A stretch of DNA of 64,000 bases from a virus. Taxonomy: Duplodnaviria > Caudoviricetes. Location of the stretch: IMG/VR virus record IMGVR_UViG_3300032243_001028, positions 71,097 to 135,096 of that record. One strand, written 5' to 3'. Positions 2,305-47,058 of the stretch are shown piece by piece (position 1 is the stretch's first letter; every line of letters begins with the position of its first letter). Position numbers and translations under genes: made by a program. The notes beneath the pieces were generated by a model. That model saw only the letters and a list, made by a program, of their open reading frames with translations, was not told where the DNA came from and ran no database searches.

Positions 2305-5300
2305 ATGGCTGGTATAAATGAAGTTGGTAAAGCCAATGTTGTTGTAGGAGCTGATACTAAAAAAGCTGAAATCGATATTGAGAGATTTAGAAAAAGGCTA
2401 GAGCAAACTGGTCGTGGTTATGACAAACTTTTTAAAGAAGACATAACTAGAAAATTTTCTGAAAACTTTAGAAAAGGTTTTGAACAAGGAGTTCTTCGTG
2501 GAGTTCAAAAAGGTGAGAATCAGTTTTATCAACTTAACCGAGCCATAAACGTTGCTGCCACCTCTCTGCAAAAAATTAAAGGTCCTGCTGAAATGGCAGC
2601 AGATCGTTTTATGAAATTGCAGCGCACCGGGCTTAAAATGCAAGCAGCTTTTGGAACTATAGCCGGAACCATTGGAGATCTAGCTGGAGGAATTTTAGGT
2701 CTTGTAGGAGTTCTTGGGGCAGCGGCTCCTGCAGCTGTAGCACTCGGTGGAGCTATGGCATCAGTTGGGGTTGGATTTGTTGGCGTAAAAGTTGCTATGT
2801 CAGGTGTGTCAAACGCTATTGGTGCAGTTTGGCAATCTCAAACTGCTTTAAATGATACATTTAGAGCTGCTACTCAAGAATATATTGGATTAAAGTTTGC
2901 TGCTGAGGAAGCCGCTCTATCCCAAGAAGATGCTGCACTTAAACTTGAAGTTGCTCGTGAAGCACTGGCACGCGTTCAAGATCTTCCACCGGATAACCGA
3001 CTACGTCGTCAGACAGAACTTGCTTTTAAAAATGCAGAATTAAATCTTCGTGAAACTAAGCACAAAAGTGAAGAAGCTTTTCGAGCCGTTAAAAAGGGTA
3101 TTACTGCTACAAGTGCGTATCAACCCTTGGCCGCTCTATCTGATGTACAACTACAGTTTGTAAAGTTTGTAGTTGCGCTTAGACCTCAAATGCAGACACT
3201 TAAAAAAGAAGTTGCTGCAGGGTTTATACCTAAACTTACAGAGTCAATAAATACTATTATGAAGCATGGCTTTCCTATATTTAAAACTGGACTAAAACAA
3301 GTTGCATCTGCAATGGGGGATGCTACTAAGACTTTTGCAAGTGCATTTAAAAATCCTCAAAATCTACAGCAACTAGCTGGTTTCTTTAAAAGCTCTACTG
3401 GAATTATTCATAGTTTTGGAAGTGCTACTAAATCTTCATTTGGTATTTTAATAACTCTTCTTCATGCTGCTGAACCTATTACAAAACGTTTTGCTGATTG
3501 GGTAGATAAATATCTTGCAGGTCTTGATAAAAAAGTTAAAGTAGGTAGTTTTACCGGTAGCCTTCAGAGAATGTTTGCTCTTGCTGGAGACGTATCTGCA
3601 CGTCTTGGAAAAGCATTTAGCACGGTATTTGATGGAATAAAAAATATTATTAAAGCAACTTTTCCTAGCGGTCCCAAGAGTGGTGCTGGTGGAGTTTTAC
3701 TTGATTTTATTGATAAGGTAACACAGGGGTTTGAAAAATTTACTGGAAGTAAATCATTTGCTTCGTGGCTTGAAAATTCTACTAAAGGTGCTGTAGCTGC
3801 TTTAACTACTATTGGTAAATTTCTTGGTATTTTTGTTGATCTAGCTGGAAGTAAAGATACAAAAGCATTTTGGGACACTATACAACAAGCAATTCCTTAC
3901 GTAAAAACTATACTTGAAAACGGTCAAGCAGTAGGTGTGCAAATTGCAGGTATTTTAGTTGACGTGGCTAAGATTTTAGCTGCTTTTGCAGATCAAGGTA
4001 CGCTTGTTACATTCTTCAACTCTCTTAGAGTAATTTTTGATGCATTTGCTAATTTTGTAAATTCACCTATTGTAAAAACAATATTAGGATTCCTTGGAGC
4101 TTTGCATGGACCTATGCTTGCTCTTGGTGCAGTTTTTATATTAGGTAAAAAAGCTCTTGAAATATTTCTAGGTTATTTAGCTAAAGCTGCTAATATAATG
4201 GGGACTACCACTATGAAGGCTAGGGCTGCCCAGCAAGCTCATCAAGCATTTGGTAGAGAAATGAAACTTGCTGGACTAGCAGGAGAGACATTCTGGCAAA
4301 AACTTAGAAGAGCTTCTGCAACAGCTAATAATCAAAAGCTTTTGGCAATGGGTAGAGAAGCTGGTTTTGCTAAAGATCGTCTAGCTCAACTAGAACTTCA
4401 AATGATTTCTAACTCTAGAACTGCAACCCTATTTGATGAAACCACCCAAAAAAGCACTAACCTAATGGAGATGGATGCTAATCAAGCATTAGAGTTGGCT
4501 TTAAGAATTGAACAACTTGCAAAAGCTCAGGGCATGGATTCCGTTGCATTAAATAAATTAAATACGCAAATGTTAGAAAATATTACACTTGCTGGACAAG
4601 AAAATATAACCAATCAAGGACTACTTAGGGGTACCGAGCTTGCAAATGGTGCGTATAAAGCTCCATTTGTAAACGCCAATGAAGCTGCTTACTATGGTCA
4701 ACCTGGTACTAAAGGAGGTAATCCTAATTTAGTTCTTACCGGGGGTAGAGCCGGTTTTAAAGCCGTGGGAGCCGGTATAAAAGGTATGTTCGGTGGCATG
4801 GGTGGTGGAGGTGTTGCTGGTGGCTTAGGTATGGGAGCCATGGCAGTGAGCGGTTTAGTTGGCATGGGTACTGGTACCATGGGTCCAATTGGTATGGCTA
4901 CTCAGGCTATTGGTGGAATTGCTTCCATGTTTGGGCCTGGCGGTATGGTTGTTGGTGGTCTGCTATCTGTTGGTGGAACTATTGTTGATGGAATTATAGC
5001 TGCGGAAAATGAACGTCAAAAAGGTATTAAAGAATTTAGAATTGCCGTTGCAAATATGTCGGTTGAAAGCTTAAATCAAGTTCAAGGATTTGCTGAAAAA
5101 GCTGTAGCTGCTGGATATGTAGGAACTAAAGCAGAGGGATCTGCTCTAGCTTCAAAATATGATGCAACTGCAAGTAGGGTTATTCCAAGCACTACCCACG
5201 AAATTAGAGCAACGTATAGTAAAGATGCAACTAAGCAAGCTGCAGCTATGGACGAGGCATTGGCAGCATTTGCTTTATCTAATAAAAGAGCTTTTCAACT

Positions 5301-6531
5301 ATCTCAAAGAAATGTAAATCAAGAAAACATTTTAAATTCAGTTGGAAGTATTGCGCAACATAGTACTTTAAGTACTACTGACATTGCAGGAGCTTTAGGG
5401 TCTCTATCCAGCATAACCGAAGATACTAAGGACGGTGTTCTACAAGGATTAGTTGGTGCTGGACTAGTTGGTAAAGGTAATCTTACAGATCTTAAAAAAG
5501 ATCTTGGATATACTGATAAAGGTGTATTGACTAATGAATCATTTAATAAACTTTTAACAGATATAAAAAATATTAACAAATCTACGCCTACTACGCCTGG
5601 AGTAACTCCTCCCCCTGGCAGTCTCCCTACTGCAGTTGCTCCAAATAAATTTATACCTTTAGGGTCAGTTCAACCTAATCCAAATATTTATGATTATAAA
5701 ACTATATATGGAACAAATGGGTATACTGCGGCTCAGTCTCAAGCGGCTAGAAACTTTAAATTAGCTCCAGCTACTTCAGGACTATTGCCTGACGCCATTG
5801 GAGATTTGTCTACTCAAAGCTTCTTTAAACTAGATGCTAATAAAAATGTTACTGGTTTTAAGAGTCAAGAAGGACAGAATCAAGTTACAAATGCTATTTC
5901 TGACTTATCTTATGCTCTTTCTGGAATAAGAGGCAGTATAACTAATGAATCAAGGGGTTATTATAAGTATGCTGGAAATATTTATAGTCCGTCTGAATTA
6001 GAAAAATTAAAAACAAAAAATCCAACAAGATACAACGCTATAAAAAAAGATCCTGATGCATTTCAACAAGAGCAGGGGTATAACGTATCCGGTAAGTTTT
6101 TCTCAACAGAATTATTTAATAGTGCTTTAAAGTCAATTAAAGTTAAAATCAATGGAAAAGATCTAAATGCTTATGATGCATTAGCTGGAACTACTACCCT
6201 AGCTAATATCGGTAAAATTGGAGAATTGACTAGCACCGGGAAAACTGGAAATCCTATCCTTGACGCGGCAAATAAAACGGATTCAGAGCAATTAAAAACT
6301 TTTACAACAGCTAGTGATACGATGAAGACTAGTGCTGAAAGTTGGGGTAAGGCTGCTGCCAAATTTGAAGGCTATGGAGATCTTATTAAAGGTGAGACAA
6401 ATAAAGCAATAGCGTTTGCTGTAGTTGCTGCTTCCACTGAAGGAAAGAAAGCAATAGCTGCTGGCGATACTGGAGCAATAAATAATCTAATACTGACTGA
6501 AATTAAAAAACTAAGGCTGAGTACTAAATAA
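2305..6531 (+). CDS. tape measure protein
   Basis: 1408 aa, A/G-rich helical with hydrophobic segments; RBS AAGGAGG; follows chaperone pair. Confidence 0.9.
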   Translation: MAGINEVGKANVVVGADTKKAEIDIERFRKRLEQTGRGYDKLFKEDITRKFSENFRKGFEQGVLRGVQKGENQFYQLNRAINVAATSLQKIKGPAEMAADRFMKLQRTGLKMQAAFGTIAGTIGDLAGGILGLVGVLGAAAPAAVALGGAMASVGVGFVGVKVAMSGVSNAIGAVWQSQTALNDTFRAATQEYIGLKFAAEEAALSQEDAALKLEVAREALARVQDLPPDNRLRRQTELAFKNAELNLRETKHKSEEAFRAVKKGITATSAYQPLAALSDVQLQFVKFVVALRPQMQTLKKEVAAGFIPKLTESINTIMKHGFPIFKTGLKQVASAMGDATKTFASAFKNPQNLQQLAGFFKSSTGIIHSFGSATKSSFGILITLLHAAEPITKRFADWVDKYLAGLDKKVKVGSFTGSLQRMFALAGDVSARLGKAFSTVFDGIKNIIKATFPSGPKSGAGGVLLDFIDKVTQGFEKFTGSKSFASWLENSTKGAVAALTTIGKFLGIFVDLAGSKDTKAFWDTIQQAIPYVKTILENGQAVGVQIAGILVDVAKILAAFADQGTLVTFFNSLRVIFDAFANFVNSPIVKTILGFLGALHGPMLALGAVFILGKKALEIFLGYLAKAANIMGTTTMKARAAQQAHQAFGREMKLAGLAGETFWQKLRRASATANNQKLLAMGREAGFAKDRLAQLELQMISNSRTATLFDETTQKSTNLMEMDANQALELALRIEQLAKAQGMDSVALNKLNTQMLENITLAGQENITNQGLLRGTELANGAYKAPFVNANEAAYYGQPGTKGGNPNLVLTGGRAGFKAVGAGIKGMFGGMGGGGVAGGLGMGAMAVSGLVGMGTGTMGPIGMATQAIGGIASMFGPGGMVVGGLLSVGGTIVDGIIAAENERQKGIKEFRIAVANMSVESLNQVQGFAEKAVAAGYVGTKAEGSALASKYDATASRVIPSTTHEIRATYSKDATKQAAAMDEALAAFALSNKRAFQLSQRNVNQENILNSVGSIAQHSTLSTTDIAGALGSLSSITEDTKDGVLQGLVGAGLVGKGNLTDLKKDLGYTDKGVLTNESFNKLLTDIKNINKSTPTTPGVTPPPGSLPTAVAPNKFIPLGSVQPNPNIYDYKTIYGTNGYTAAQSQAARNFKLAPATSGLLPDAIGDLSTQSFFKLDANKNVTGFKSQEGQNQVTNAISDLSYALSGIRGSITNESRGYYKYAGNIYSPSELEKLKTKNPTRYNAIKKDPDAFQQEQGYNVSGKFFSTELFNSALKSIKVKINGKDLNAYDALAGTTTLANIGKIGELTSTGKTGNPILDAANKTDSEQLKTFTTASDTMKTSAESWGKAAAKFEGYGDLIKGETNKAIAFAVVAASTEGKKAIAAGDTGAINNLILTEIKKLRLSTK

Positions 6532-6567
6532 TGACACGTACAAACTTAATTCCTAAGGAGATCGCGA

Positions 6568-9500
6568 ATGAATCGCGTAAATCTTGTAACTAATCCGTCA
6601 TTTAAGACGGACACCTCAGGCTGGACTACTGTCGGCACTGGAACATCATTTGTTCGTTCTACTACCGATGGATTTTACGGTAGCACATGCTTAGAAGTAA
6701 CTAAGCCTGCTTTAAATTCAACTGGCGTGTCATGGACATCAGCTGCTACTCCTAACCTAGTTAGCAACTCAAGTTTTGAATCAGCTCCTAGCGATACTGT
6801 GAGTAGGACTAACTTACTAACAAACCCAAGTTTTGAAGCAGAAGCTAGTACGGTTGTTACTGCCAGAACTAACTTAGTGACTAATCCTGGTTTTGAAACA
6901 TCATCTAGCACAGCTACTATTCGTACTAATAGAATTCTTAATCCAAGATTTGAAGCAGCTCCTACTGTAACTACTAGCCGAATTAATTTACTTATAAATT
7001 CAAGTTTTGAAGCAACAACTGTTGAAACAACTGCTAGAACTAACTTATGTACAAACCCGAGTTTTGAGCACGCTACTACTCCCATTTCTGGATGGGCTGC
7101 TGTAAATGGTGCTAGTAGGGCAGCTTCAACTGCACAAAAAAACATTGGTGCTCAAAGTTTGCTTGTAACTTATGGTGCTGCAGCTGGAGCAACGTACACT
7201 GGAGTAGGTTATGCATTAACCCTTGCAGCATCTACTACATATACTTTTTCTGCATACGTATATACTCCAAGTGGATCTGTTTTTCCTCAGCTTAGCGTTC
7301 AATCATCAGTGACTCCCGCATTTACAGCTGTTATTTCTTCAAATGCAACGTCAACAGGTGCTTGGCAGAGACTTTCAGTTACATTTACCACAACTGCTGC
7401 CGGTTCTTATACGTGTTATGTACTAAACAGTGCTGCAGTTACTGGAACAAAAACTTTCTATCTAGACAATGTTTTAATAGAACAGACAAGTATTCTTAAA
7501 CCATATTTTGATGGTGCTACATCAGGAACTGGAACTGAATTTACTTACAACTGGACAAGTACTGCTCATCTAAGCACCAGTGAGCAAAAATATTTTAAAA
7601 ATCCTACTTGGGGCTATATTAGGGCGTTATCTGGAATTGCCTCAACTGCACAATGCCTGTATGGAACTAAATCAGCTTTGCTTACTGCTGACGGCTCTCC
7701 TGGAGCTTTTGGTATGTATAACTCTGGTATCGGGAGTGCTCGTACTGCGGTCACTGCTGGATCAACTTACACTTCTTCTATCTATGTTCGTGATATAAAT
7801 ACTGCAGTTTCTTATTATGCGGCTATTGAATGGTATAACAGCAGTGGTGGTAGCGCTGGTGCTACTTCAACTGGAACAGTGACAGCAGTTAATTCTTCAG
7901 GCTGGACCCGCATAAGTGTTTCAGCAGCTGCACCTACCGAAGCTGTTACGGCAGTACCTACTTTCTACTCAAATACTGCCCCAGCAAGCGGTACACAGGT
8001 ATATTTTGATGGTGCTCTTTTTGATTTTTCTGCTGAAGTTAGGCCATATTTTGACGGAGATACCGCCGCTGCTAATGAATTTACCTACTCCTGGTCTGGC
8101 ACTGCTCATGCAAGTACTAGCCTTCAAAAGTTTAATGCTGCACCTAGCTACTCATTCGATTCATTAAAAGGCGTTGTTGCTAGAAGCTCTGCAACATCTC
8201 CTTTTGTAGGTACTTATAGCGGTTTAGTAACAAGCCTCAGCAGCTTTGGTACTCTTGGTACTTATTCTTCAAACTCAACTGTTACTGCTGGAACTACTTA
8301 TGTTGGTTCTATTTATGTTAAAGATTTGAGCCTTGGTAGAACTATCCAAGTAAACATAGATTGGCGTGGCAGTGGGGGCTATATAAGTAGTAGTAGTGGT
8401 ACTGCAACAGCTATTTCTACCGGTTCATGGACAAGAATTAGCGTTACTGGAGTTGCTCCATCGGGAGCAACAGGTGCTTCACTTGTATTAGCTGTTCCTT
8501 CAACCGCCCCATATGGTTCACAATTTTACATAGATGCTGCCTTACTTGAAGCAGGCTCTTACGTCAATACTTACTTTGATGGATCAACTACTGCTACAGG
8601 TGATTTTACTCACGCTTGGACTGGAACTGCTGACGCTTCATCTAGTAATCAAGTTGCAAATATGGTTGATGGTTGGAGCAATGTATATAATCCAGAAGGG
8701 TTGTCATACGGATTTTATCGAACTAATGCAGATAAACAAAATGGCTCTTACTCAATGGCTTTGGCTATGTATCAAGGAACAGGTGCTAATCCAATTAATC
8801 TTGGTACACCAATCCTTAGTGCAATTACGGCTAGCAAGACCTATACATCTTCCATTTATGTCTACACTAATCGAACACAAAACATTAACTTTGTGTTTAC
8901 AGTTACTACTGCTGCTGGTTCTACTTACCCAGGTGTAGTGACTTCTGTACCGGGTGGAACTTGGACTAGAATAAATTATACGTACACTATGCCTTCCAAT
9001 TTGGTTAGTTCTACTGTACAAATTCAACCAAGTGCTCCAAAAAGCGGTGACTATTTCTACTTTGATCAATTTTTGTTAGAAGAATCTAGTATTTTAAAAT
9101 CTTATTTTGATGGCAGTACAGCAGCAGCAGGTGAATTTACTTATTCCTGGTCCGGCACTGCTAATGCTTCAACTAGCATCCAACAATATTCTATTAGCTC
9201 TACTTGGGGATCTATTGGATCATTATCTGCTATCACCTCAACTGCACAGTATTTATATGGGGCTAAATCTACACTAGCTACTGCCGATGGTTCTGGAACT
9301 TTTGGTATCTATAACTCGGGTGTGTCTTCTGCTCGTACTGCAGTCACTGCTGGTAAATCCTACACTTCTTCTATTTATGTTAAAGACATCGATACTGGAG
9401 TTTCATACTATGCAGGTATTGAATGGAAAGATAGCGGTGGTAGTAGCGCGGGCGCTACTTCAACCGGAACAGTCACGGCAGTTAATTCTTCAGGCTGGAC

Positions 9501-11892
9501 CCGCATAAGTGTAACTGCTACCGCACCTACCGGAGCCGTTACAGCAATTCCTACTTTTTATTCTGGGACTACCCCCGCAAGCGGAAAACAAGTGTATTTT
9601 GATGGTGCTCTTTTTGAACAAGCAAGTGAGATTAAACCATATTTTGATGGGAATATTGCTAGTGCTAATGAATTTACTTATGCTTGGTCCGGTACTGCTC
9701 ATATAAGTACAAGCTTAGAAAAATATTCTAAGGTTCCAAGCTGGGCAGGAGATGTGAACTCTGTAATTGCTAGAAGTTCTGTAACAAGTTATATTGGTAC
9801 ATACAGTGGTTTAGTTACTAGCACTAATAGCTCTAGTAAATTAGGTTTATTCATTATTACTGGTACTTCGGTAACTCCTGGAAAAGCTTATAGTGCATCT
9901 ATTTATGCTAAAGATTTAAATCTTGGAATGACAGTTAGAGTTGAAATTCATTGGTATAACGGAAGTTCTTATATAACTAACTCGACTAGCGCTTATACAA
10001 GTATTTCAACCACTGATTGGACAAAGTTAAGTGTAACTGGGACAGCTCCTACAAATGCAACTCTTGGCTATATAGTTGTAAATAGTTCATCAAATGCTCC
10101 ATTTGGAAAACAAATCTATGTTGACGCTGCTGTACTTGAACAAAGTTCTGTACCTACTTCTTATTTTAACGGAACAGCTGTAGCAACTAAAGCTGGAACA
10201 ACTTATGCTGCATCTTTATACGTAAAAATTCCAGTCGGGCAAGAAACTTCTTCATTTAAAATATATCTTTATTGGTATGATTTTACTGGTACTCAGATCT
10301 CGTTTACTTCCAGCGCGTTAGTAACTGTAACTAGTGACGATGGTTGGGTTCGTTTAGGTGTGGCTAGTACTGCTCCTACAAATGCTGTTATTGGAGAAGT
10401 TAGATTAGATCAACCTACCGCTGGAACTAGTGGGAAAAAATTCTTAGTTGATGCTGTATTGCTAGAAGAATCTAGCTATTATGGTCAGTATTTTGATGAT
10501 TTTACTCAAGATCAAGAGACCACTAAAGTCAATAATGCATTGCGTCGTGTCCCGCCCCCTCACCTTACAGGTATGCAGCTCAATGCGGATATTAATATTA
10601 ATGGGCTAATACTTAACACTATTGATGAAAATAACGTTGTTTGGGTCTGCACTGATATTAAAAATTGGTGGGCTCTACCTGAACCTGAAGTTCCAGATAT
10701 TGGACGTGGATTGGATGATGGTTCATACGATGTTCGTGGACGTTGGAAAGCTAGAGCCATAACTCTTGAAGGATCTATTCTTCCTCCAGATGTAGGTTCT
10801 ATGGTTGCTGCAAGATCTAAACTGATCGCTGCTCTTTCTCCTCTAGTATATTCAGGTGGAATTTTAGCTGTAGATGAGGGACCTATAAAAGTTTCTAAAG
10901 TATTTATGGTTGGGCAGCCTAACATGGAAGTAAAAAATGCACGTGGACGTATAGATTTCAGTGTTCAACTTAGATCTGGAGATCCTGTTAAATATGAATG
11001 GAACTATCAAGCTACTGATGGTTACTTTTCTGTTACGCCTTTTTCATATAAAACTTCTGGATCTATCTCAAACGTCTCCCAAGGACTTGGAATTCGTAGG
11101 TATTACGCAACTAATACTTTTGTTGTGGGGGATTACGTAACTATTTCAGGAGTAAGTCCATCAGGATATAATACAGAATCTACTTCTCCATTAGCTATTA
11201 CTGCAGTGGATCCTAATGGAGCTTGGTTCGAAGTGTCTGGAACTTCTTCCGGTGCTTACGTTTCTGAAACGAATAGTTCTGCAAAATTAGCTTACTCAAA
11301 TACAAGCATAACTAACTCAGGTAATACTTCTGTTCCTACTATTATAACTATTACTGGACCTATATCTAGTGGTAGCTACATAAAAAATACAACTAATAAT
11401 ACTTCTATGAAATTAGTTAAACAAATGAGAGCGGCTTCATATTTTGTAAATATTGGATATGTTTCTAGGTATGGAAATGTAGCTACTCTAACTACTACAA
11501 ACTCTACTGGCCATGGATTATTTGTGGGGGATGTTGTTAATATATCTATTTCTAGCGATCCTGGATCTTTTAGCGCTAGTTCTGTAACTATTACTTCAAC
11601 TACTACAAATACTTTTACTTATGATTCAGCTGGATCTGATGTATCACTTACCTCTGTTGCTGGTTCTACCACTACTTTGGTATCTGCCGATATTGCTGTA
11701 ATAGATACATATAATCAAACTGTAAAATATCGCGGTATAGCTGATGCTGGACGTTCTATTTTAGATGCAAATATAGATTGGTTGAAACTAGTTCCGGGAT
11801 CTAATAATATTCAAGTTCAAACGGGAGATAGTTCAGTATTAGCATCTGATAGCAAAGTAGTAGTCCAATACCGTTCCGGCTGGATCGGTTAG
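6568..11892 (+). CDS. distal tail protein (Dit-like) with seven N-terminal CBM4/9-like carbohydrate-binding domains
   Basis: NLxxNPSFE and W.R.SVT...Y.D...E motifs of CBM jelly-rolls; C-terminal part (GRWKARAITLEG, ITNSGNTSVP, WLKLVPGSNNI, YRSGW) matches Dit pattern; directly after tape measure. Confidence 0.8.
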   Translation: MNRVNLVTNPSFKTDTSGWTTVGTGTSFVRSTTDGFYGSTCLEVTKPALNSTGVSWTSAATPNLVSNSSFESAPSDTVSRTNLLTNPSFEAEASTVVTARTNLVTNPGFETSSSTATIRTNRILNPRFEAAPTVTTSRINLLINSSFEATTVETTARTNLCTNPSFEHATTPISGWAAVNGASRAASTAQKNIGAQSLLVTYGAAAGATYTGVGYALTLAASTTYTFSAYVYTPSGSVFPQLSVQSSVTPAFTAVISSNATSTGAWQRLSVTFTTTAAGSYTCYVLNSAAVTGTKTFYLDNVLIEQTSILKPYFDGATSGTGTEFTYNWTSTAHLSTSEQKYFKNPTWGYIRALSGIASTAQCLYGTKSALLTADGSPGAFGMYNSGIGSARTAVTAGSTYTSSIYVRDINTAVSYYAAIEWYNSSGGSAGATSTGTVTAVNSSGWTRISVSAAAPTEAVTAVPTFYSNTAPASGTQVYFDGALFDFSAEVRPYFDGDTAAANEFTYSWSGTAHASTSLQKFNAAPSYSFDSLKGVVARSSATSPFVGTYSGLVTSLSSFGTLGTYSSNSTVTAGTTYVGSIYVKDLSLGRTIQVNIDWRGSGGYISSSSGTATAISTGSWTRISVTGVAPSGATGASLVLAVPSTAPYGSQFYIDAALLEAGSYVNTYFDGSTTATGDFTHAWTGTADASSSNQVANMVDGWSNVYNPEGLSYGFYRTNADKQNGSYSMALAMYQGTGANPINLGTPILSAITASKTYTSSIYVYTNRTQNINFVFTVTTAAGSTYPGVVTSVPGGTWTRINYTYTMPSNLVSSTVQIQPSAPKSGDYFYFDQFLLEESSILKSYFDGSTAAAGEFTYSWSGTANASTSIQQYSISSTWGSIGSLSAITSTAQYLYGAKSTLATADGSGTFGIYNSGVSSARTAVTAGKSYTSSIYVKDIDTGVSYYAGIEWKDSGGSSAGATSTGTVTAVNSSGWTRISVTATAPTGAVTAIPTFYSGTTPASGKQVYFDGALFEQASEIKPYFDGNIASANEFTYAWSGTAHISTSLEKYSKVPSWAGDVNSVIARSSVTSYIGTYSGLVTSTNSSSKLGLFIITGTSVTPGKAYSASIYAKDLNLGMTVRVEIHWYNGSSYITNSTSAYTSISTTDWTKLSVTGTAPTNATLGYIVVNSSSNAPFGKQIYVDAAVLEQSSVPTSYFNGTAVATKAGTTYAASLYVKIPVGQETSSFKIYLYWYDFTGTQISFTSSALVTVTSDDGWVRLGVASTAPTNAVIGEVRLDQPTAGTSGKKFLVDAVLLEESSYYGQYFDDFTQDQETTKVNNALRRVPPPHLTGMQLNADININGLILNTIDENNVVWVCTDIKNWWALPEPEVPDIGRGLDDGSYDVRGRWKARAITLEGSILPPDVGSMVAARSKLIAALSPLVYSGGILAVDEGPIKVSKVFMVGQPNMEVKNARGRIDFSVQLRSGDPVKYEWNYQATDGYFSVTPFSYKTSGSISNVSQGLGIRRYYATNTFVVGDYVTISGVSPSGYNTESTSPLAITAVDPNGAWFEVSGTSSGAYVSETNSSAKLAYSNTSITNSGNTSVPTIITITGPISSGSYIKNTTNNTSMKLVKQMRAASYFVNIGYVSRYGNVATLTTTNSTGHGLFVGDVVNISISSDPGSFSASSVTITSTTTNTFTYDSAGSDVSLTSVAGSTTTLVSADIAVIDTYNQTVKYRGIADAGRSILDANIDWLKLVPGSNNIQVQTGDSSVLASDSKVVVQYRSGWIG
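7885..7919 (+). repeat. 35-bp exact direct repeat (second copy 9478-9512) inside a duplicated CBM body
   Basis: GCAGTTAATTCTTCAGGCTGGACCCGCATAAGTGT at both sites; flanks ~7630-8130 and ~9230-9730 are also highly similar. Confidence 0.95.
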
Positions 11893-11924: not shown

Positions 11925-14900
11925 ATGACAGAAGCATATCCAATAGGTACGTCTGCTACAGCAGCTAAGTACACCTACTACGCTGTTGATATTGTATCTA
12001 ACAAAATTCTTGCTCAAATCCCTTTTGAAGACGTTATTTATGAAAGAACTTTAAAGGGTGCTGGTTCATTTGATGGCAAAATTTCTATTAACAAGCAGAC
12101 TAAAGATCTTGATTTATACAACTCCACTCTCCCTGGAAAATGCGCTCTATACGTTGTTCGTAATGGCGTTTGTATGTGGGGCGGTATTATTTGGGGTAGA
12201 ACCTATGATCTTTTTGGAAGGTCTTTAAACGTCACTGCTTCGGAGTTTACTAGCTATTTAAAACATCGTATTATTTGGAAAACATATTCATATCAATTTA
12301 CAGCTGTAGTAAATAAAACTTCAAAAAAACTACCAGCTAAAGTTGTTTTACAAAATACTAGTAATATAAATTTAAAAATACCTATTAAAGTTTTAGATGA
12401 TTACGGAAATTTAAATCGAGTATATGTTAGCTTTACTAGATCTGATTTAATTAAATATAATGGGTACTACCCACTGTCTCCGTCTGTCACTCCTACAACA
12501 ACTGTATTTTATATAACTATTCCAGATCTTCCAGCAGAAAAATATACTGATGTAAGTATTTCTATACGAGTGGATACTTATGAATACTTAAAAGAATTAA
12601 TGAAAGAAGCTGCTCAGGATTTTGTAGATAGTAAATTTGCTAATGAGGTTATCACTCCAGGAATAAGGATTCCGTATCAAATTACAAATAAATCTGCTGA
12701 TGGAGGTATTGTAACTCTTACCACATCTACTACGCATGATCTGGTTCCAGGGCAAAATGTAGAAATACGAAATGTAGATGAAAATGTTGACGGCGTACGT
12801 TTAGTTTCAGAAACTCCTAGTAGTAATACTTTTAGGGTAATTGTTCCTGCTTACAATATAAAAACTCTATCTGCTAGCGCAAATACTGCAACAGTTACCG
12901 TTGATGTAGGCGATACAAACGACATATTTAAACTTACTGTAGGTAGTAGAGTAACAATTGCTGATGCTCCAACCTTTGGTGGATATAACTATTTTAATTT
13001 TTCAAACGTTAAAATACTTAGTGTATCAAATAACAATACTTTTACCTATGAAATAGTTAATCCTAGAGGAACCATAGCTATTTCAAATGCTACATCAACT
13101 GATTCTTTAATCACATACACTGCAACAAATACTTTATCCGTTGGAGACTATGTAACCGTAAAAAATTCAAACAACTCGAGCTACAATGTGGTAAATAAAA
13201 TTGTAACTTATGCAGATAGTACTAAATTTATAATAGCTAATCCTCTTAATTCAGCAATTTCTGGAAAATATTCTCCTTATACAGCCACTGCGTATGCTGG
13301 AATAAATACTATTTCTGGGGTTCCTGGAGTTGTTTCTCAGATATCTATTCCGCCAACTAACATATACACTAATAAATATGAGGTAGCTACTAGAGCTTTA
13401 AAACCTACTAAACCATATGGAGTAGTTTCAGCTAAACGATCTTATAATTCTGATAAAAGTCTTTTTATAGTAACTCTTCAACTAGGTAAATCTAGCTCTA
13501 AAACTTTTACTTTTCTTAAAGGAGATACTATAACTACAAGTTTGGCTGGAGATACTACTAAAGATGCTAATAAAAATCTTATGTACACTGCCTTAACTAA
13601 TGGTGATGGGGGAGGAGTTGTTCTTACAGCAGTAGACAAAGTGAAAAAAACTGTTTCATATGAACTTACTGGAGTAGCTACTAAAAAAGATGACGATACT
13701 TACATATCAGAGCAAACAACTTTTACTACATTATCTGGCACAAATACCATAAACTATGCAACTGCAACAACTGAAGTTGAAATTGGTATTTCAGAAGAAG
13801 CTCCTCTTAGAAAAGATATGTATGTTTATGTTACCGGTGTAGATGGGGTTAGTTGGAGTCAACCACTCTATAACGGTTTTCAACAGATAACTGATACCTC
13901 TGTTATAGACTCGGAAACTGGATCTATTAGTACAAAAATTACAAAATATGCTACAGAGGCTGGAGTAGCTACTTTATACACTAGTAAAAATAATAGTTTT
14001 GTTAATGATCAGATGGTTACTATTGCTGGATTTGCTGGATCTTTGAGTTATTTAAACGGAGTATTTAAAATAATAGATTCAATACAAGGATCTTTAGATG
14101 GAGAAAGTTATTTTACTTATTATATAGATGATAATGCTTCTATAGCTAGAACGGTTGCGGATAATGGAGTAACGGGCAGAGTTAAAGGTCAAAACGTATT
14201 TAGATACAAACTACCAGAATATGGTCCTATAAATGAACCGGATGGTAAATATGCTGTAACTTCATATAGAATAGGTGGCTACGCTAGCGATGCAACTGAT
14301 AAAAGATCAACGGTTAGAATAAAAACTCAAGAAAAAATTAAGTTTAATCCTGGAGATTCTGTAGATATAGCTATTGGAGTAGATGCAACCGATGGATCTT
14401 ATAAAGTTGGATCTGTTTCTCCGTCAAGAGATTCTTTTACATATAAAATTCCAGCAAGCAAATCTTCCGTGTCTAAATCTACAGATAGTACATACAAAAC
14501 TATCACCGGTACTGTATCTAGAACTTCTGCTCAATTAGATCAACAAAGTTTAAAGTACCAACCTACAATTTCTGCTATGAGCTGCGAAAGCAATGTAGTT
14601 ACAGTTAGAAGTGTTAATCATCAATTTAATGCCGATGATTCTATTAGTTTAATATTTCCATCAGCTTTTCAAGATTATGATAATAATGGATTTAAAGTTA
14701 TTATTCAATCTGCAGATAAAGATACTTTTACATATTCTTTAACTAATTTTAGAGATGGAGTTACAACTGCAGCAGATGCAGGAGTTGTTTCAATATCTAA
14801 ATATAAATTTACAAAAAATACTGCAAATAATACATCTGGAACTATAAGATATACAACAACTGACGAACACTACTACACGGTTGGATCTAAGGTTACAGTT

Positions 14901-16820
14901 ACAAAAATAAATAAAAATCCTACTGGAACTGCTTTTGCACAAAGTCTTACTTGGAGTAGTGTGTATGTAATCACTGAAGTAAATGATTTAGCAGATTCAG
15001 TTAAATATTTTGAAGTATCTGTGACAAATTTAACTAATGCAGCGGACATAACCGAGCAGACTTTAGCTTCTAATTTATACGGTAAAGCAGTTTCTACTGC
15101 AATGATGATTTCAAAAGCTAAAGCTCTTACTAGTGGATCTGCTTCTTCGACTCAAATAACTTACACTGGAACTAACTTACCTTTTGTAGCTGATGAAACG
15201 CTTACTGTTGTTGGATTTACTGGTACTGGATCTACTAGAATAAATAGTAAAGGTAAAATAACTTCTACAGCTGGTACTCCCACTACTTCAGTAAAAATTG
15301 ACGTAGCAGGGACTGTTGTATCTCCTGCTATCACTTCTGGAAAACCTTTTGGGTATGTTAGATCATATGCTAGTGCTCTTTTGGATTACTCAGAGTCTAT
15401 TACTGCACAAACTGTTTATGGCATTTCTGCTGTTGCTAGTACAAAAACTATAACTTTATATTGTCCAGACCATGGATTTGTTGATCAGGATGTAATAAAA
15501 TTAGTACTTCCAAATAACTATAAAAATTATTATCCATCTGATGATAAACCAGTTACAATTTCAAAAATAGATAATTCTACTTTTAGCTATAAAGTTACTA
15601 ATACCATAAGTAACATTGCTATGTCAGAAACTATTACAGATATAGGTACTAACTCTGGAACTGTTAGATTTACAGCTAATAATAGTTTTTCTGCAGGTCA
15701 AAAAATAACTATAAAAGGTGTGATCCCTGACGTTTATAACTTTACGTCAGCCACTGTAACTAATGCTACTGCAACATATTTTGAAATTGCTAGTACGGAA
15801 ACAGCGAGTTATGAAGCATCTAATGGTGTAGCTATGCAAGCACTAAGCCCTACTGGAACAGCAGTAGAAGCTCCTTATGTAGCTATTACTCCAGTTGTAC
15901 TCTCTAGAACTTACGGAGAGTTTCCAAAAAATACTAATATTGGTGGGCTTGATTTCGATGGCACTACATATAGCGGTAATTTCTATCCAAATACTATTGT
16001 TCGTGGTAGTGATATGGTAACTCTTGATGCTCATATGGAACAGTATAGTAATTCCGTAAATGGGTTTAATTATAGGATAGACTGTACTTTAAATAATTCC
16101 GGGGGGGAAAGTATGTTTAAACGTAAATTTGTTTTAGTTCCTATTACTCCTGCTACGCTTAAAGAATATTTAAATACTCAGCCAGGGGGAGTTCTTCCTG
16201 TAGGTAAAGTAGCTCCACCATATGCTTTTGGTGCAGATAAAATTACATTTGAGCATCCTGGAAATGTGGAAAATGTAAGTTTTAGTGAAAGTGCTGAAAA
16301 TGCTGCCACAAGAATGTTTGTATCTGGTAATAATGGTGCAGGAGATCCAAACTCTGTAGCAAGATTCTCTGGAGCTGCCGATAATGATCTTCTTGAAGCT
16401 GGATGGCCTATTTTAGATAGGGCAGAGAAAATTGATTGGCCTACTCAGTACAATCCTCTAGTTATAACTGTTAATAGGGATAATTGGGGTAACTATGATG
16501 CCGAGGCAGATTTTTATGCAACAGCTAAAAGATTTTTATATCAGTCTAGGCCCCCTCAAGGAGACTTTGTAATTAGAGTTAATGGCTCTTTACCGCCTGT
16601 AATTGGATCTTATAATCCCGGAGATTGGTGCCAATTAATAGTTGATGATGAAGCTGGATTTATTAATAGTAGATTAGCTAGTGTATTAGAACCTAGAAAA
16701 GACGTTATTCTTAGAAGGATTGATAACATTAAAATATCTGTTCCAAATAGCCCTGCATTCCCGGAAGAGATTGATTTAACTCTAGTGACAGACTGGGAGG
16801 TGGACAGAATTGGCAAATAG
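11925..16820 (+). CDS. baseplate hub / minor tail protein (Gp37-like) with many inserted ~70-80 aa beta modules
   Basis: N-terminus (LKGAGSFDG...VVRNGVCMWGGIIW) and C-terminus (YNPGDWCQLIVDD) fit siphovirus hub proteins; repeated H.(L/F)..G..V.I.G...YNG...FTY modules. Confidence 0.7.
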   Translation: MTEAYPIGTSATAAKYTYYAVDIVSNKILAQIPFEDVIYERTLKGAGSFDGKISINKQTKDLDLYNSTLPGKCALYVVRNGVCMWGGIIWGRTYDLFGRSLNVTASEFTSYLKHRIIWKTYSYQFTAVVNKTSKKLPAKVVLQNTSNINLKIPIKVLDDYGNLNRVYVSFTRSDLIKYNGYYPLSPSVTPTTTVFYITIPDLPAEKYTDVSISIRVDTYEYLKELMKEAAQDFVDSKFANEVITPGIRIPYQITNKSADGGIVTLTTSTTHDLVPGQNVEIRNVDENVDGVRLVSETPSSNTFRVIVPAYNIKTLSASANTATVTVDVGDTNDIFKLTVGSRVTIADAPTFGGYNYFNFSNVKILSVSNNNTFTYEIVNPRGTIAISNATSTDSLITYTATNTLSVGDYVTVKNSNNSSYNVVNKIVTYADSTKFIIANPLNSAISGKYSPYTATAYAGINTISGVPGVVSQISIPPTNIYTNKYEVATRALKPTKPYGVVSAKRSYNSDKSLFIVTLQLGKSSSKTFTFLKGDTITTSLAGDTTKDANKNLMYTALTNGDGGGVVLTAVDKVKKTVSYELTGVATKKDDDTYISEQTTFTTLSGTNTINYATATTEVEIGISEEAPLRKDMYVYVTGVDGVSWSQPLYNGFQQITDTSVIDSETGSISTKITKYATEAGVATLYTSKNNSFVNDQMVTIAGFAGSLSYLNGVFKIIDSIQGSLDGESYFTYYIDDNASIARTVADNGVTGRVKGQNVFRYKLPEYGPINEPDGKYAVTSYRIGGYASDATDKRSTVRIKTQEKIKFNPGDSVDIAIGVDATDGSYKVGSVSPSRDSFTYKIPASKSSVSKSTDSTYKTITGTVSRTSAQLDQQSLKYQPTISAMSCESNVVTVRSVNHQFNADDSISLIFPSAFQDYDNNGFKVIIQSADKDTFTYSLTNFRDGVTTAADAGVVSISKYKFTKNTANNTSGTIRYTTTDEHYYTVGSKVTVTKINKNPTGTAFAQSLTWSSVYVITEVNDLADSVKYFEVSVTNLTNAADITEQTLASNLYGKAVSTAMMISKAKALTSGSASSTQITYTGTNLPFVADETLTVVGFTGTGSTRINSKGKITSTAGTPTTSVKIDVAGTVVSPAITSGKPFGYVRSYASALLDYSESITAQTVYGISAVASTKTITLYCPDHGFVDQDVIKLVLPNNYKNYYPSDDKPVTISKIDNSTFSYKVTNTISNIAMSETITDIGTNSGTVRFTANNSFSAGQKITIKGVIPDVYNFTSATVTNATATYFEIASTETASYEASNGVAMQALSPTGTAVEAPYVAITPVVLSRTYGEFPKNTNIGGLDFDGTTYSGNFYPNTIVRGSDMVTLDAHMEQYSNSVNGFNYRIDCTLNNSGGESMFKRKFVLVPITPATLKEYLNTQPGGVLPVGKVAPPYAFGADKITFEHPGNVENVSFSESAENAATRMFVSGNNGAGDPNSVARFSGAADNDLLEAGWPILDRAEKIDWPTQYNPLVITVNRDNWGNYDAEADFYATAKRFLYQSRPPQGDFVIRVNGSLPPVIGSYNPGDWCQLIVDDEAGFINSRLASVLEPRKDVILRRIDNIKISVPNSPAFPEEIDLTLVTDWEVDRIGK

Positions 16821-19800
16821 ACGTATACAAAGAGGTAAAGAGCTCTCTGACTATTTAAGAGCTATGAGTGAAGATGTTACTAAATTAAATAATAGAAATC
16901 ACGTTACTTCTATTGCTGCAAATGCAATTGGATCTAATGAAATTGGTGAAGATATAGTTTTAGATAATAAATCTATATCTAGTTTAAATTATCTTCCGGG
17001 GGTATCTGGTTGGAGAATTGACGGATATGGGAACTCAGAATTTGCTAACGTGTACGTTCGTGGAAATATTAATGCTTACTCCGGAACTATTGGTTATTGG
17101 AATATTAGTCAACCTCTAGTTAAAAGAACTTTTGGAGACTATGTAATTCAAGGAACTCTTATAGAAAGTTCCAATATAGGTTTGACAGACGATAATGTAA
17201 CTTCTGGAACATATGTTGGTCTTTTTAAATCATACATAGATGATCAAATTGATATTATATCTATATCCAGAGATTCTGAAATTGCTGAGGTCACTGTTGC
17301 TGATCATAATTATTCAATTGGTGACTATGTTAAAGTTAGAGTTTATGAAGACTCTACTTTTAATACCGATTCTTCTGTAATTATTGATATAAGTGGTAAT
17401 ACATATAAGTACCACAGTGTTGGACCTGACACGGTAATTCCTGAAGTAAACGGTTTTTCAATTCTAGCCATTAGAGATATTGCTGGTCTATATCTACGTG
17501 ATTATTCAAAATCTGAATTTGATTATGGGTACTTTTCAAACACTGGTGTTGCTTATGTTTCAGCTGAAGATGTTAACTTAGTTAAAAATCCTAGTTTTGA
17601 ATATCTTACTTTATATGCTAGTAGAATTAGCAGTGACTTATCATGGACAACTAGTAGTGGGTACACTTTTGCTTTAGAACAATTTAATGATGGCACTAAT
17701 CCTCAATACCAATATGACAGCTCTTATGGTGCAAGTATTACTTGGGATAGCCCTGCTCCTTCTACTTACATTTCTGGAACTTTAGACTACGCTGTAGGTT
17801 CCACATACAATCTTTATAGATCTGGACGAATTTTATATCTGGGAATGAACATATTTCCTAAATACAATGCCTATGCTTCTACTCCTACATCAGTGGCTAG
17901 GCAAATTGTAACTGGAACATTTACATCAGCTTCATCAACCACTACTCAGATCACATATACCGGAACTGGATTGAACTTTGTAGTTGGCCAACGTCTAAAA
18001 GTTACTGGATTTGGTGATTCTGCCCACAATATAACTAACGTAAAGATTACTAGTGCTAGCTCTACTACAGTTGTTGTGACTAGAAATGGTGCAGCTGTTG
18101 CAACTTCTACCGGTACTGGATCTGCATCCGTATTGGTGTGGAAAGTTACAACGTCTACTGATCATTATTTAGATGCTTATGACACTGCACTTTTAGACTT
18201 TGAAGGTAATAAGTACGATTCTCTATACGGAGAGTATTTTGATTATGTACCTAGAATGATAAGTACTGGAGTATATGTACGAACTTATTCAGTTCTTGCA
18301 TACCCAAGTAGAACTAGATCTTCTGGAAACTATACTTTTTATGTAAGTTCGGATAACTACGTAGATGAAGTAAATGGTGCTGGAAGTCCTGTGTCCATGA
18401 CAAGTCTTGATCCAATTGGAACTAACCCAGATGTTGCTACCGATCCCTATGGATTTACTAGACCTGTTCAAGTTTATAAAGTAGTAAATGCTGCATATGA
18501 CATTTCTCAAGTTAGATTTAGATTTGGTAATGGTTCTACTGTAGCTATTTCTGATGTTGCATCTATAGCCACTAAATCCCAGTGGAATTCCGGAATAAAT
18601 AAATACTATATTTCTGACTCAACTTTATATGCTAATGGCTATAGAGATGCTACCCGTGGTCTACCCTACATGTATAAGTCAGACGCAATTATTATTGACT
18701 CTAATCTACTTGATTATAGCTACTCAATACTTGATGAAACTAACCATGCTTTGGGTACAGACATATCTATAGACATTCCTGCCTGGTTCTACACTCACGA
18801 TGGAGCTGGAACTGTAGTAGATTCAACAACTAAATTTGAAATGAATGCAATATCAAATGGTATTGGATTTATTTTAGATAATGTTTATTTATCTACATCG
18901 AACAAGATATTTTATGGAGATGTTCTTAGTACAAATAGATGGTACTCAGACACAGTTGAAATTCCTACTTATAATCCTTCTCAAGCTTCAATCGAAGGAA
19001 CTAAAAAATGGTTAAATATAGATCTCGACACTCAAACTGCTTATTTAAATTATTTTAATTACATTGGGTTCAAACCAAGTAATTTTTCTAAAACTATGTT
19101 TTTAAATCCAAGTTTAGGAACTTCTGGAACAAATGCTCTAAAAATATTAAAACCTACTGACTACGAAACTACTGCACTATCAAGCGGTGAATACCAGTAT
19201 GTGGATAATGCTGAAAATTATCAAAATTTAAGTGCATATCTAAATTTAACTTCTGGTGATAGAGAAGCTGGATTTGAACTTGTTTCAAGTAAAAAAGAAC
19301 ACCTTATTACCACATCAACAGTACTATTTGAAAACTACGCTCTAATTGCTGGATACTACGATAAATATAATTTAAGATCTGTAATTCAAGCTAGCGCAGA
19401 TAGGTTTGCTATTTCAGCAAATGGTCTTGAAGGTAAATTTGATCGTTTCTGGGTAGATAATTTAGGTATTGGTGGAAGTCTTAAAAATTCTTTAACTCTC
19501 ACTGCTGATAGCGGTACCAATGATGGTACTGATAGATATAAATTTAATAACTATTCGAGTCAATCTTTAAACTTTGTTGGTAGTTCAACTATAACAATTA
19601 CTAAAACCGCTGGAACTTGGACATTTTCGGCGTCTGGTGCCGTTAGCGGGTATATCGGTACTACTGCTGTACAAGCAAGTAGCGCAGCTCAAGGTATGAC
19701 TGGAATATCTTCTATTTCAAGTTTAAGTGCTATAACTATAACGTCTGCTGGTGGAAGTGCTACTTCTCTATATAGCGGTAGCAGTTCCTCTGTATCAGGA

Positions 19801-22481: not shown

Positions 22482-23024
22482 ATGACTAAATTTATTGGAA
22501 TATCTGGACTGGCTAGATCTGGAAAAGATACTGCCGCTGAGTATTTGGTTAAGAATCATGGATTTACGCGGGTATCTTTTGCTGATCCAATGAGAGAAGC
22601 ACTACTTGCATTAGATCCAAGCGTAGCGTTTGGCATATCCTCCATAAAATTATCAACATTGGTCAGGCTTGGTGGCTGGGATAGAGCTAAAGAAGATAAT
22701 CCTGAAGTAAGAGAGCTTATCCAAAAAATGGGTACTGAAGTAGGACGTAATATTTTTGGTAGCAATTTTTGGGTAGATCAAGCTTTTAAAAAAGCTGAGC
22801 AATACGACAAAGTTGTATTTTCAGACTGTAGATTTATTAATGAAGCAGATGCTGTGGCATCTCGTGGGGGATCTATTTGGAGAATAAATAGACCTGGGCT
22901 TCTTGCTCCAAATAATCATATATCTGAAAAAGAATTAAATAATTACAATTTTAATGCTGTTCTAAGTAATGACAGCACTATAGAAAATTTTTATGGCAAA
23001 ATTGAAAAACTTTTGGAGCTTTAA
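22482..23024 (+). CDS. deoxynucleoside monophosphate kinase
   Basis: P-loop GLARSGKDT, SFADPMRE, QKMGTEVGR, SDCRFINE, HISE motifs. Confidence 0.9.
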   Translation: MTKFIGISGLARSGKDTAAEYLVKNHGFTRVSFADPMREALLALDPSVAFGISSIKLSTLVRLGGWDRAKEDNPEVRELIQKMGTEVGRNIFGSNFWVDQAFKKAEQYDKVVFSDCRFINEADAVASRGGSIWRINRPGLLAPNNHISEKELNNYNFNAVLSNDSTIENFYGKIEKLLEL

Positions 23025-23680
23025 TGTCTGATCAAGGAATAGCACTTTTATATGCTCGTGTGTCTACCCAGCTCCAGGTAAGTGATGGAGTTTCATTAGA
23101 TGTTCAAGAACGTCAGCTACGTCAAGCTGCTGAACTAGCTGGATATACAGAGTTTGAACTTGTCCGTGAGGAGGGTCGCTCAGGTAAGTCAATTACGGGC
23201 CGTCCGGCTCTTACAGCCGCTTTAAAGCGTTTAGATACTGGGACTGCTTCAGCCCTATTTGTGACGCGTATCGACCGCTTAGCCCGTTCTACGAAGGATT
23301 TCTTGAGCATCATTGACCGAGCCAATGCTAATAAATGGCGTCTAGTCATGCTTGATCTAAATTTGGATACAGCTAGTTATCAAGGACGCTTTGTGGTTAC
23401 AATTATGTCTGCTTTGGCAGAGATGGAACGTGGGATTATTGCTGAACGTCAAAAGGATGTTCACAAAGATCGACGGGCCCGAGGTATTAAATGGGGTGTT
23501 GATATGGGCCCTAAAAATAAAACTTCTAATGAAGTAAAAGATCTCATTAGAAAACAGAAAGATTCTGGTCTTTCATTTCACGAAATAGCTAGACGATTAA
23601 ATAATAATGGCGTACCAACCCAAAATGGAGGGAAATGGTACGCCACTACAGTTAAAAATATTTACGATTCTTTAGATTAA
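23024..23680 (+). CDS. small serine recombinase (resolvase/invertase family) with C-terminal recombinase-type helix
   Basis: YARVST catalytic Ser, SGKSITGRP, TRIDRLARS; C-terminal IARRLN...GGKWYATTV. Confidence 0.92.
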   Translation: MSDQGIALLYARVSTQLQVSDGVSLDVQERQLRQAAELAGYTEFELVREEGRSGKSITGRPALTAALKRLDTGTASALFVTRIDRLARSTKDFLSIIDRANANKWRLVMLDLNLDTASYQGRFVVTIMSALAEMERGIIAERQKDVHKDRRARGIKWGVDMGPKNKTSNEVKDLIRKQKDSGLSFHEIARRLNNNGVPTQNGGKWYATTVKNIYDSLD

Positions 23681-46462: not shown

Positions 46463-46536
46463 CGCGGGGTAGAGCAGCTCGGTAGCTCGCTAGCGTCATA
46501 AGCTAGAGGTCGTAGGTTCAAATCCTGCCCCCGCAA
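46463..46536 (+). tRNA. tRNA-Met(CAT), initiator-type scaffold, CCA not encoded
   Basis: Full cloverleaf CGCGGGG...CCCCGCA-A with C1:A72 mismatch, anticodon arm CTAGC-GTCATAA-GCTAG, T arm GTAGG-TTCAAAT-CCTGC. Confidence 0.93.
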
Positions 46537-46562
46537 CGCAGTAACAACAATAGGAGAATGAC

Positions 46563-46704: not shown

Positions 46705-47000
46705 GGGGATGACTGGTTTCGACAGTTGTCTTGATGTTAGTGAAGCAAGCAGAGATGACAGTATCTCTTGAATCTGTCAAAACAATAAATGCTAATACAT
46801 CTGCATACGCTCTAGCCGCGTGATTTAATCGCAACGCTTAGGCCCCTGACAAAGCACTAGTTCTAGGTGGGCAGTCAGGTTTTAAATAAATAGAACAAAT
46901 CCTCTCGTAGTGCCCTGTAGTACCGTGGTTGGTAAAACCTAAGCTTGTAGAAGAATAACTGAATGTCAATTGGACCGGGGTTCGATTCCCCGCATCTCCA
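46705..47000 (+). ncRNA. ssrA: tmRNA; tag ANTSAYALAA (46791-46823)
   Basis: 5' GGGGATG pairs with 3' CATCTCC-A including G3:U70; GGTTTCGAC near 5' end; T arm CGGGG-TTCGATT-CCCCG; resume codon after ATAAAT; tag ends YALAA. Confidence 0.95.
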
Positions 47001-47058
47001 CGCTTGTAGACAAAGGAGCGTAAAGCGGTCTACCCGTCCTAGGCAACGGAATCTCCAA

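Follow-up and report, generated by a model that had tools for sequence, protein, structure and literature searches.

Distal tail proteins (Dits) carrying carbohydrate-binding modules (CBMs) have been described from lactococcal, streptococcal and Lactobacillus siphophages, whose evolved Dits hold one CBM or two, in many cases with the BppA fold, in loops of the galectin domain (PMC7291167). Recursive insertion of one domain into another is also established; the deepest case named in a survey of 48,551 such events is Si3 of Prochlorococcus rpoC2 (cyanobacterial RNA polymerase β′), with eight domains in six levels (PMC13114784). Here we analyze a stretch of 64,000 nucleotides (the window), the right-hand 64 kb of the 135,096-bp Caudoviricetes record IMGVR_UViG_3300032243_001028, which is complete and has direct terminal repeats. 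The gene under study, at 6568–11892 of the window, encodes a 1774-residue Dit whose N-terminal 1310 residues probably form a rod of seven CBM4/CBM22-type β-jelly-roll domains joined by recursive insertion, as an earlier, sequence-only reading had proposed.

With the evolved Dits this protein shares CBM decoration by domain insertion and a gene flanked by the tape-measure gene and the following tail gene (PMC7291167). It differs in that its seven CBM_4_9-type domains appear to be inserted into each other, and all of them occupy residues 1–1310, N-terminal to the ring domain recognized at residues 1332–1640, rather than the peripheral C-terminal domain. With Si3 it shares same-fold domains recursively inserted (A1-B1-C-B2-A2) over about six levels, with a chain running out and back (PMC13114784), and with six insertions and seven domains it would equal the Si3 depth. 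The likeness is one of topology: as described there, Si3 is built from hybrid-motif sandwich barrels, whereas the window domains are CBM_4_9 jelly rolls outside the hybrid-motif family, and protein, organism and function also differ. In the window protein, moreover, the part of a host domain that precedes the insertion would be a single strand of 9 residues, and the outgoing and return linkers would carry dedicated motifs and pair. Recursive insertion, although rare, is itself already known, and the window protein would present it in a different fold and with a dedicated pair of linker motifs.

The fold itself is that of CBM22-1–CBM22-2 of Paenibacillus Xyn10C (4xup) and of single CBM22/CBM4 modules (1h6x, 4bj0, 1gui), which match a predicted model of part of the array with Z of 15–17, root-mean-square deviation (rmsd) of 2.2–2.5 over 133–150 residues and 14–22% identity. 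Those modules are contiguous, arranged head to tail and have measured sugar binding; for the window array, sugar binding is suggested by the predicted fold. The same strand motif, return linker and body family occur in actinophage minor tail proteins (such as Arthrobacter phage Mimi gp188 and Molivia gp23) and in metagenomic relatives, in which stacks of 1–7 in-phase strands precede as many strand-less bodies. Unlike the window protein, those of the Mimi gp188 type are not Dits: they have a conserved short leader in place of a split domain 1, a different C-terminal domain and often complete domains interspersed on the return path, and their sole annotation is 'minor tail protein'. In the part of the literature that was searched, we found no phage protein described as having nested CBMs, and the word 'nested' is absent from the Douge cryo-EM paper and the Cluster AZ preprint.

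Strands are numbered 1–7 from the N- to the C-terminus and bodies 1–7 likewise, body 1 being the complete inner domain, following the sequence-only reading. That reading had listed seven first-strand motifs within the first ~170 residues, five R(T/I)N outgoing and five return linkers, and only the first of seven bodies directly preceded by a strand; each of these observations was reproduced. A regular-expression scan of the 1774 residues placed NxxxNxxF at residues 5, 63, 82, 102, 121, 140 and 159, with two extra loose matches inside bodies (768 and 1172). R[TI]N follows at 80, 100, 119, 138 and 157, plus two occurrences within bodies; each outgoing unit consists of the 9-residue first-strand motif and a ~10-residue linker ending in R(T/I). 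On the way back, YF[DN]G after the last strands lies at 313, 494, 669, 846, 1025 and 1199, and the five return linkers (FTxxWxxTAxxSxS) at 325, 505, 680, 857 and 1036. Position matrices trained on 220 related proteins scored the seven strands at 21–35 bits and the five return linkers at 30–42 bits, against shuffled-sequence maxima of 11.5 and 2.7 bits, respectively, placing both motifs far beyond chance. The free strands scored 21–31 bits and the complete domain's own strand 35.

Two pairs of bodies stand out by paralogy: bodies 2 (residues 313–493) and 5 (846–1024) share 72% protein and 74% DNA identity, and bodies 3 (494–668) and 6 (1025–1198) share 53% and 63%, with the remaining pairs at 31–47% protein identity. 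The distal complete domain (159–312) is the most divergent, at 31–36% identity to the other bodies, and may set specificity. The earlier reading had matched these body pairs to paralogous strand pairs. Its body half stood; its strand half was not confirmed, as neither strand pair is distinctive. Strands 3 and 6 are identical at 12/20 residues and strands 3 and 4 likewise, and strands 2 and 5, at 9/19, fall below strands 2/3 and 2/6 (10 each).

The absence of a first strand from the later bodies was quantified with a full-domain profile of 156 positions, derived from 250 complete domains of relatives (a random sample of 322). The complete domain (residues 159–310) covers positions 1–154, and the five later bodies start only at positions 12–22, for example 22–151 for residues 313–493, 21–153 for 494–668 and 12–154 for 669–845. 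Pfam CBM_4_9 (PF02018; gathering cut-off 25.9 bits) was passed by three of six segments scanned: the complete domain at 159–312 (47.3 bits, profile positions 2–120), 669–845 (29.9 bits, 29–131) and 1025–1198 (32.2 bits, 16–132). Residues 494–668 reached 21.1 bits, below the cut-off (26–132); 313–493 and 846–1024 scanned alone gave no match, and a whole-protein scan at E 0.01 listed none. Of the 16 Protein Data Bank sequences that residues 1–1310 matched (E 0.006 to 1), every one was a picornavirus VP1 jelly roll, and we regard none of the matches as meaningful.

Domain 1 was said to be split mid-fold and completed ~1140 residues later, and two comparisons bear this out. On the full-domain profile its halves are complementary, residues 5–61 covering positions 1–61 and residues 1200–1304 positions 53–153, with 1138 residues between them, the interrupted host domain characteristic of recursive insertion. 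In the Microbacterium phage Dit A3Wally gp98, domain 1 is contiguous: its residues 2–54 align with window residues 3–55 (36% identity, E 2e-4) and its residues 59–403 with 1205–1528 (40% identity, E 4e-69). Contiguous in one and split in the other, the domain thus holds a 1149-residue insert in the window protein, whose two ends must therefore meet in space. At the level of the sequence, these comparisons show that domain 1 is split and that the bodies lack the first-strand region.

The innermost layers were modeled with AlphaFold2 (residues 140–493; 47-row alignment), giving a mean predicted local distance difference test (pLDDT) of 89.8 and a predicted template-modeling score (pTM) of 0.77; strand 6 reached pLDDT 87, and the outgoing linker, modeled as a β-strand, 88. 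The predicted model superposes on solved CBM jelly rolls. In a structure search of 48,161 solved chains, from which the best 50 matches are listed, the inner domain alone matches CBM22 1h6x_A (model 16–173; Z 17.0, rmsd 2.3, 148 residues aligned). Among those 50, at least 14 single CBM-type chains span model residues 1–2 to 347–353 with only 126–154 residues aligned, for example CBM4-2 4bj0_A (chain 3–167; Z 15.6, rmsd 2.5, 150 aligned). Such full-span ranges with short aligned lengths indicate that strand 6 sits at the first-strand place of the CBM and that the inner domain is skipped, a placement read from ranges and lengths because the search output gives no more than the two end residues of each alignment. 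Both domains of the model can be superposed together on public predictions for other actinophage minor tail proteins: Wheelbite (TMq 0.79, rmsd 3.8), Zeta1847 (0.74), Mufasa8 (0.73) and Bodacious (0.71).

The outer layers were examined in trans by predicting strands 2 and 3 as a separate 39-residue chain (residues 63–101) with bodies 5 and 6 (846–1198), using ESMFold2 and an alignment of our own. The interface score ipSAE was 0.76, 0.73 and 0.74 in three runs, compared with 0.00 for the best of three controls; at least 86% of contacts agreed, and partner pLDDT was at least 74. In the predicted complex, F89 of strand 3 contacts body 5 at W880, where the second strand begins, and at D1012 in the last strand, and N82/L83 contact L1015–E1017. 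Residues 76–83, which form the outgoing linker after strand 2, pair with 1048–1055, the second strand of the linker that leads back into body 6; the last strand of that body (1185–1192) also lies within the predicted interface. In these models the contact order is last-in-first-out with outgoing and return linkers paired, and they support binding without demonstrating it. Three of the five pairings (strand 6–body 2, strand 3–body 5, strand 2–body 6) are thus seen on predicted models, and those of strands 4 and 5 would follow by induction from the 10-residue linkers and the 53% paralogy of bodies 3 and 6. Guest domains that also act as hosts are supported by these models at the innermost level, with domain 7 in domain 6, and for domains 2 and 3, but do not appear in the model of the whole insert described below.

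If each free strand serves one body, the two numbers should match in homologues. The window protein has five of each. Two close Dit homologues resemble it in their outer parts and inner domain and differ in depth: P0005 (1111 residues) has a split domain 1, two free strands, one complete domain and two strand-less bodies, and P0004, truncated at its N-terminus, has three free strands and three strand-less bodies. Counted by eye, Mimi gp188 is 5:5, P0010 6:6, P0013 2:2 and Molivia gp23 1:1; in relatives, complete domains sometimes stand on the return path. Automated token counts, which are noisy through errors from degenerate strands on the innermost domain, were applied to 36 proteins whose conserved N-terminal leader gives a trustworthy start. 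Strand and body numbers were equal in 20/36 or 21/36 (two counts) and within one in 31/36, with a Spearman correlation of 0.80–0.84; label shuffles averaged 6.5 equal and reached at most 17 in 10,000 or 15 in 5,000. Six of the proteins that came out discordant or doubtful (P0033, P0114, P0122, P0155, P0177, P0198) are balanced when read by eye.

The spacing of stacked strands is regular, at 19 residues in 292 and 20 in 87 of 418 adjacent pairs, consistent with one unit per bead. Seven strands make up the longest in-phase stacks (three proteins), and nine proteins, the window's included, have six. In the metagenomic relatives P0018, P0158 and P0159, the called starts fall within an apparent outgoing strand unit, that of P0018 where the first strand of Mimi gp188 ends, suggesting that stacks have probably been lost to late start calls in public gene predictions (e.g. 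P0018, P0159). When strands and bodies were matched as orthologues among the window protein, P0004, P0005 and P0104, the assignment was clear only for strands 4 (17/19), 7 (15–16/19) and 3 (14/19, P0005); because the losses are symmetric, the comparison fits last-in-first-out and colinear pairing alike. Altogether 2690 representatives match the region at E ≤0.001 and 142 at ≤1e-30, nesting having been checked in part of them. As a separate observation, a return-linker-like motif (..W.G.A.(A/S)STS) also precedes a non-CBM C-terminal domain in leader-type proteins such as P0122, P0177, P0114 and P0198, so this motif is not restricted to CBM bodies.

The nesting proposed by the sequence-only reading is therefore supported by the split of domain 1, the model of residues 140–493, the trans docking and the homologue counts. 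Two of the checks it had suggested point the same way in large part. Matched gain or loss of strands and bodies is found at 2:2 (P0005), 3:3 (P0004) and 5:5 (window), with none in A3Wally gp98, and the predicted contacts link strand k to body 8-k in the inner model and in the docking, although not in a model of the whole insert, where the strands stay undocked. In the proposed architecture, the chain would start domain 1, leave it after about 60 residues and run outward, and five further domains would each receive from it a 9-residue first strand, in units of 19–20 residues. The seventh, distal domain would be built in one piece; on its return the chain would supply each domain, in reverse order, with its missing ~140 residues and complete domain 1 last, ahead of the Dit ring domain. 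Between beads, the outgoing and return linkers would pair as antiparallel strands, tethering each bead twice. Such a double tether could confer stiffness or tolerance to cleavage, and folding might proceed from the tip inwards. Six such arms would presumably project from a hexameric Dit ring and could bind glycans of the host cell wall multivalently and with low affinity during adsorption, sugar binding being suggested by the CBM fold.

Several findings weigh against nesting, and three of them favor a plain tandem array, in which all bodies are complete, the SxS of each return linker acts as their own first strand, and the leader is idle, a spacer or laid on the surface. The first is the existence of similar bodies without free strands. 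Seven proteins of ~1800–2100 residues (P0006, P0007, P0008, P0009, P0012, P0014 and P0105) have 7–9 linker-plus-body units and one free strand, which is matched internally; they start with half a CBM body and end in the same final strand motif as the window Dit (...YRSGW(I/L)G). Each of their genes is closely followed by a homologue of the tail gene that comes after the Dit gene in the window, as at 6001–11829 of the contig L003, an 80%-identical copy. We considered whether they are downstream halves of split genes with a strand stack upstream, and the L003 layout led us to reject this: the gene starts 36 nucleotides after an unrelated open reading frame (ORF) of 411 residues, no stacked strands occur in any frame of its 17.8 kb, and no ORF carrying a strand stack lies within 6 kb on either side. 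A search of viral contigs for relatives of P0007 found none. A3Wally gp98 likewise has one linker-type body and no free strand, so such bodies can exist without free strands.

The second is the AlphaFold2 model of the whole insert (residues 63–1204, 1142 residues; 34-row alignment), with mean pLDDT 71.1 and pTM 0.36, in which the bodies mostly fold at pLDDT 70–90 and residues 63–156 stay below 50 and undocked. This looks like bodies folding without the strands, the outcome that the sequence-only reading had named as refuting it; a Foldseek search with this model returned multi-CBM likeness only. The third is spacing: the distance from the return-linker SxS to the second-strand W equals that from SFE in the complete domain, and SxS might replace the first strand, but Pfam CBM_4_9 leaves its first 15–28 positions unaligned to the return linker. 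Bodies without free strands and this fitting distance keep the tandem array alive, at a low probability. Against it, the free strands retain a full first-strand motif (21–31 bits against 35), match the bodies in number in homologues and keep a period of 19–20 residues in 379/418 cases; strand 6 takes the first-strand position in the confident model of residues 140–493, and the trans docking scored 0.74 against 0.00 for the best control.

The remaining points against nesting concern how its evidence was obtained, including the indirect placement of strand 6 given above. A profile-only classifier found equal numbers in just 12/36 leader proteins, below the shuffle maximum of 16 (28/36 within one, correlation 0.71), and among all 188–190 proteins with any token only 68–70 were equal (shuffle mean ~29–30, maximum 47). 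The ipSAE mark that the docking passed was reached by 58/80 solved complexes and 2/110 mismatched pairs, a calibration that is only rough here because an alignment of our own was used, and the pass may partly reflect the model's memory of the intact CBM fold. The structural support comes from prediction throughout, and the pairings of strands 4 and 5 from induction.

Slightly less probable again than the tandem array is an exchange between subunits, in which the free strands of one Dit would complete the bodies of its neighbor by donor-strand complementation, producing a collar instead of six rods. Donor and acceptor are indeed separate stretches of chain, the predicted docking takes place in trans, Dit proteins form hexameric rings (PMC7291167), and single-chain predictions are compatible with exchange between chains. 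Nesting within one chain is preferred over this collar because the split domain 1 forces the ends of the insert together, linkers of ~10 residues tie each strand to the neighboring bead, the single-chain model of residues 140–493 is confident, and non-Dit tail proteins such as Mimi gp188 show the same strand/body pattern. Colinear pairing, in which free strands and strand-less bodies would be matched in their order along the chain, fits the period-3 body paralogy equally well, which removes the proof of last-in-first-out order that the sequence-only reading had seen in the paralogues and is a further point against nesting; it is nevertheless hardly credible, because strand 6 is 10 residues from domain 7 and pairs with the next body in the model, strand 3 contacts the body at 846–1024 and the strand 2 linker the linker before 1058, domain 1 closes around everything, and the linkers would have to cross several beads.

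The gene context identifies the product. The ORF lies directly 3′ of a 1408-residue tape-measure gene (2305–6531; matches to phrog_4197, phrog_305 and phrog_6090) and upstream of a 1631-residue gene (11925–16820) matching phrog_1885 'minor tail protein', the gene order expected of a Dit. Residues 1332–1640 match phrog_33 'distal tail protein Dit' (E 7.9e-24), and the Pfam SPP1_Dit C-terminal domain (PF22768; cut-off 25 bits) scored 27.9 bits with residues 1311–1774 scanned alone and 22.4 bits in the whole-protein scan. From these matches, the product is a Dit with a 1310-residue N-terminal extension, laid out in Table 1. The other genes of the genome contain no CBM-type domains of this sort. 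The gene had no megablast match among phage records; the nearest records are 86 actinophages, all below 60% identity (55 Microbacterium, 27 Arthrobacter, 3 Streptomyces and 1 labelled Actinomycetia).

Table 1. Layout of the Dit gene and its proposed nested N-terminal array (window positions)
Feature	Position	Strand	Basis
Whole gene, Dit with proposed nested N-terminal array (1774 residues)	6568..11892	+	ORF list
Domain 1, N-terminal part (residues 1-62): first strand and next strands	6568..6753	+	Full-domain profile; A3Wally gp98 alignment
Five free outgoing units (residues 63-158), 19-20 residues each	6754..7041	+	Strand matrix 21-31 bits; docking; model
Domain 7, innermost, complete (residues 159-312), predicted distal bead	7042..7503	+	Pfam CBM_4_9; structure search
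Return linker and strand-less body 2 (residues 313-493), predicted partner strand 140-148	7504..8046	+	Profile; model
Return linker and strand-less body 3 (residues 494-668), presumed partner strand 121-129	8047..8571	+	Profile; Pfam
Return linker and strand-less body 4 (residues 669-845), presumed partner strand 102-110	8572..9102	+	Profile; Pfam
Return linker and strand-less body 5 (residues 846-1024), predicted partner strand 82-90	9103..9639	+	Predicted complex
Return linker and strand-less body 6 (residues 1025-1198), predicted partner strand 63-71	9640..10161	+	Pfam; predicted complex
Domain 1, C-terminal part (residues 1199-1310)	10162..10497	+	Full-domain profile; A3Wally gp98 alignment
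Dit proper (residues 1311-1774)	10498..11892	+	phrog_33 match; Pfam SPP1_Dit

Further features were noted around the gene. A ~45-residue repeat, '..V(A/T)TLTT...H.(F/L)..GD.V.I..', is present by eye in many copies in the 1631-residue protein, in the C-terminal part of the Dit (residues ~1500–1690, about 11070–11640) and in A3Wally gp98; it resembles a small β domain serving as a spacer and has no Pfam match. A 1757-residue ORF with a TTG start (16810–22083) overlaps the end of the 1631-residue gene by 11 nucleotides; at the thresholds used, neither Pfam nor PHROG profiles match it, and it carries one isolated first-strand motif at its residue 256. Elsewhere in the window, a 218-residue serine-recombinase/DNA-invertase-like gene (23024–23680; phrog_95 and phrog_125, E 1e-40 to 1e-43) adjoins a deoxynucleoside monophosphate kinase in a replication region that otherwise looks lytic, and ARAGORN located a tRNA-Met (CAT) at 46463–46537 and a tmRNA gene at 46705–47001 (tag peptide ANTSAYALAA).

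The pattern is not a one-off, as the same motifs recur across phage tail proteins. We tentatively read the combination of free strands and strand-less bodies, at a little under an even chance, as a general building rule of actinophage tail proteins. Under such a rule, the rod might grow bead by bead, each new bead bringing a 19-residue strand unit to the outgoing chain and a linker-plus-body to the returning one, or the distal bead might instead take up an entire nest in its first loop. Natural nests could then reach at least six levels, matching or exceeding the deepest case named in the survey of 48,551 insertions. The rod might owe stiffness and tolerance of single cuts to its paired linkers, the order of synthesis might force folding from the tip inwards, and families with linker-bodies and no free strands might be unzipped derivatives.

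If real, the nested array of this Dit would rank among nature's deepest cases of recursive domain insertion and would be the first one that we found to consist of CBMs or to occur in a virus. Annotators would gain a rule for 'minor tail proteins' that ordinary domain scans show as scattered CBM matches, and protein science a natural series, from one to about seven levels, for studying discontinuous-domain folding and the growth of architectures. For engineering, the arrangement suggests a doubly tethered scaffold of repeated binding modules. For phage biology, nesting, if real, would be a new route to long receptor-binding arms on the tail tip.

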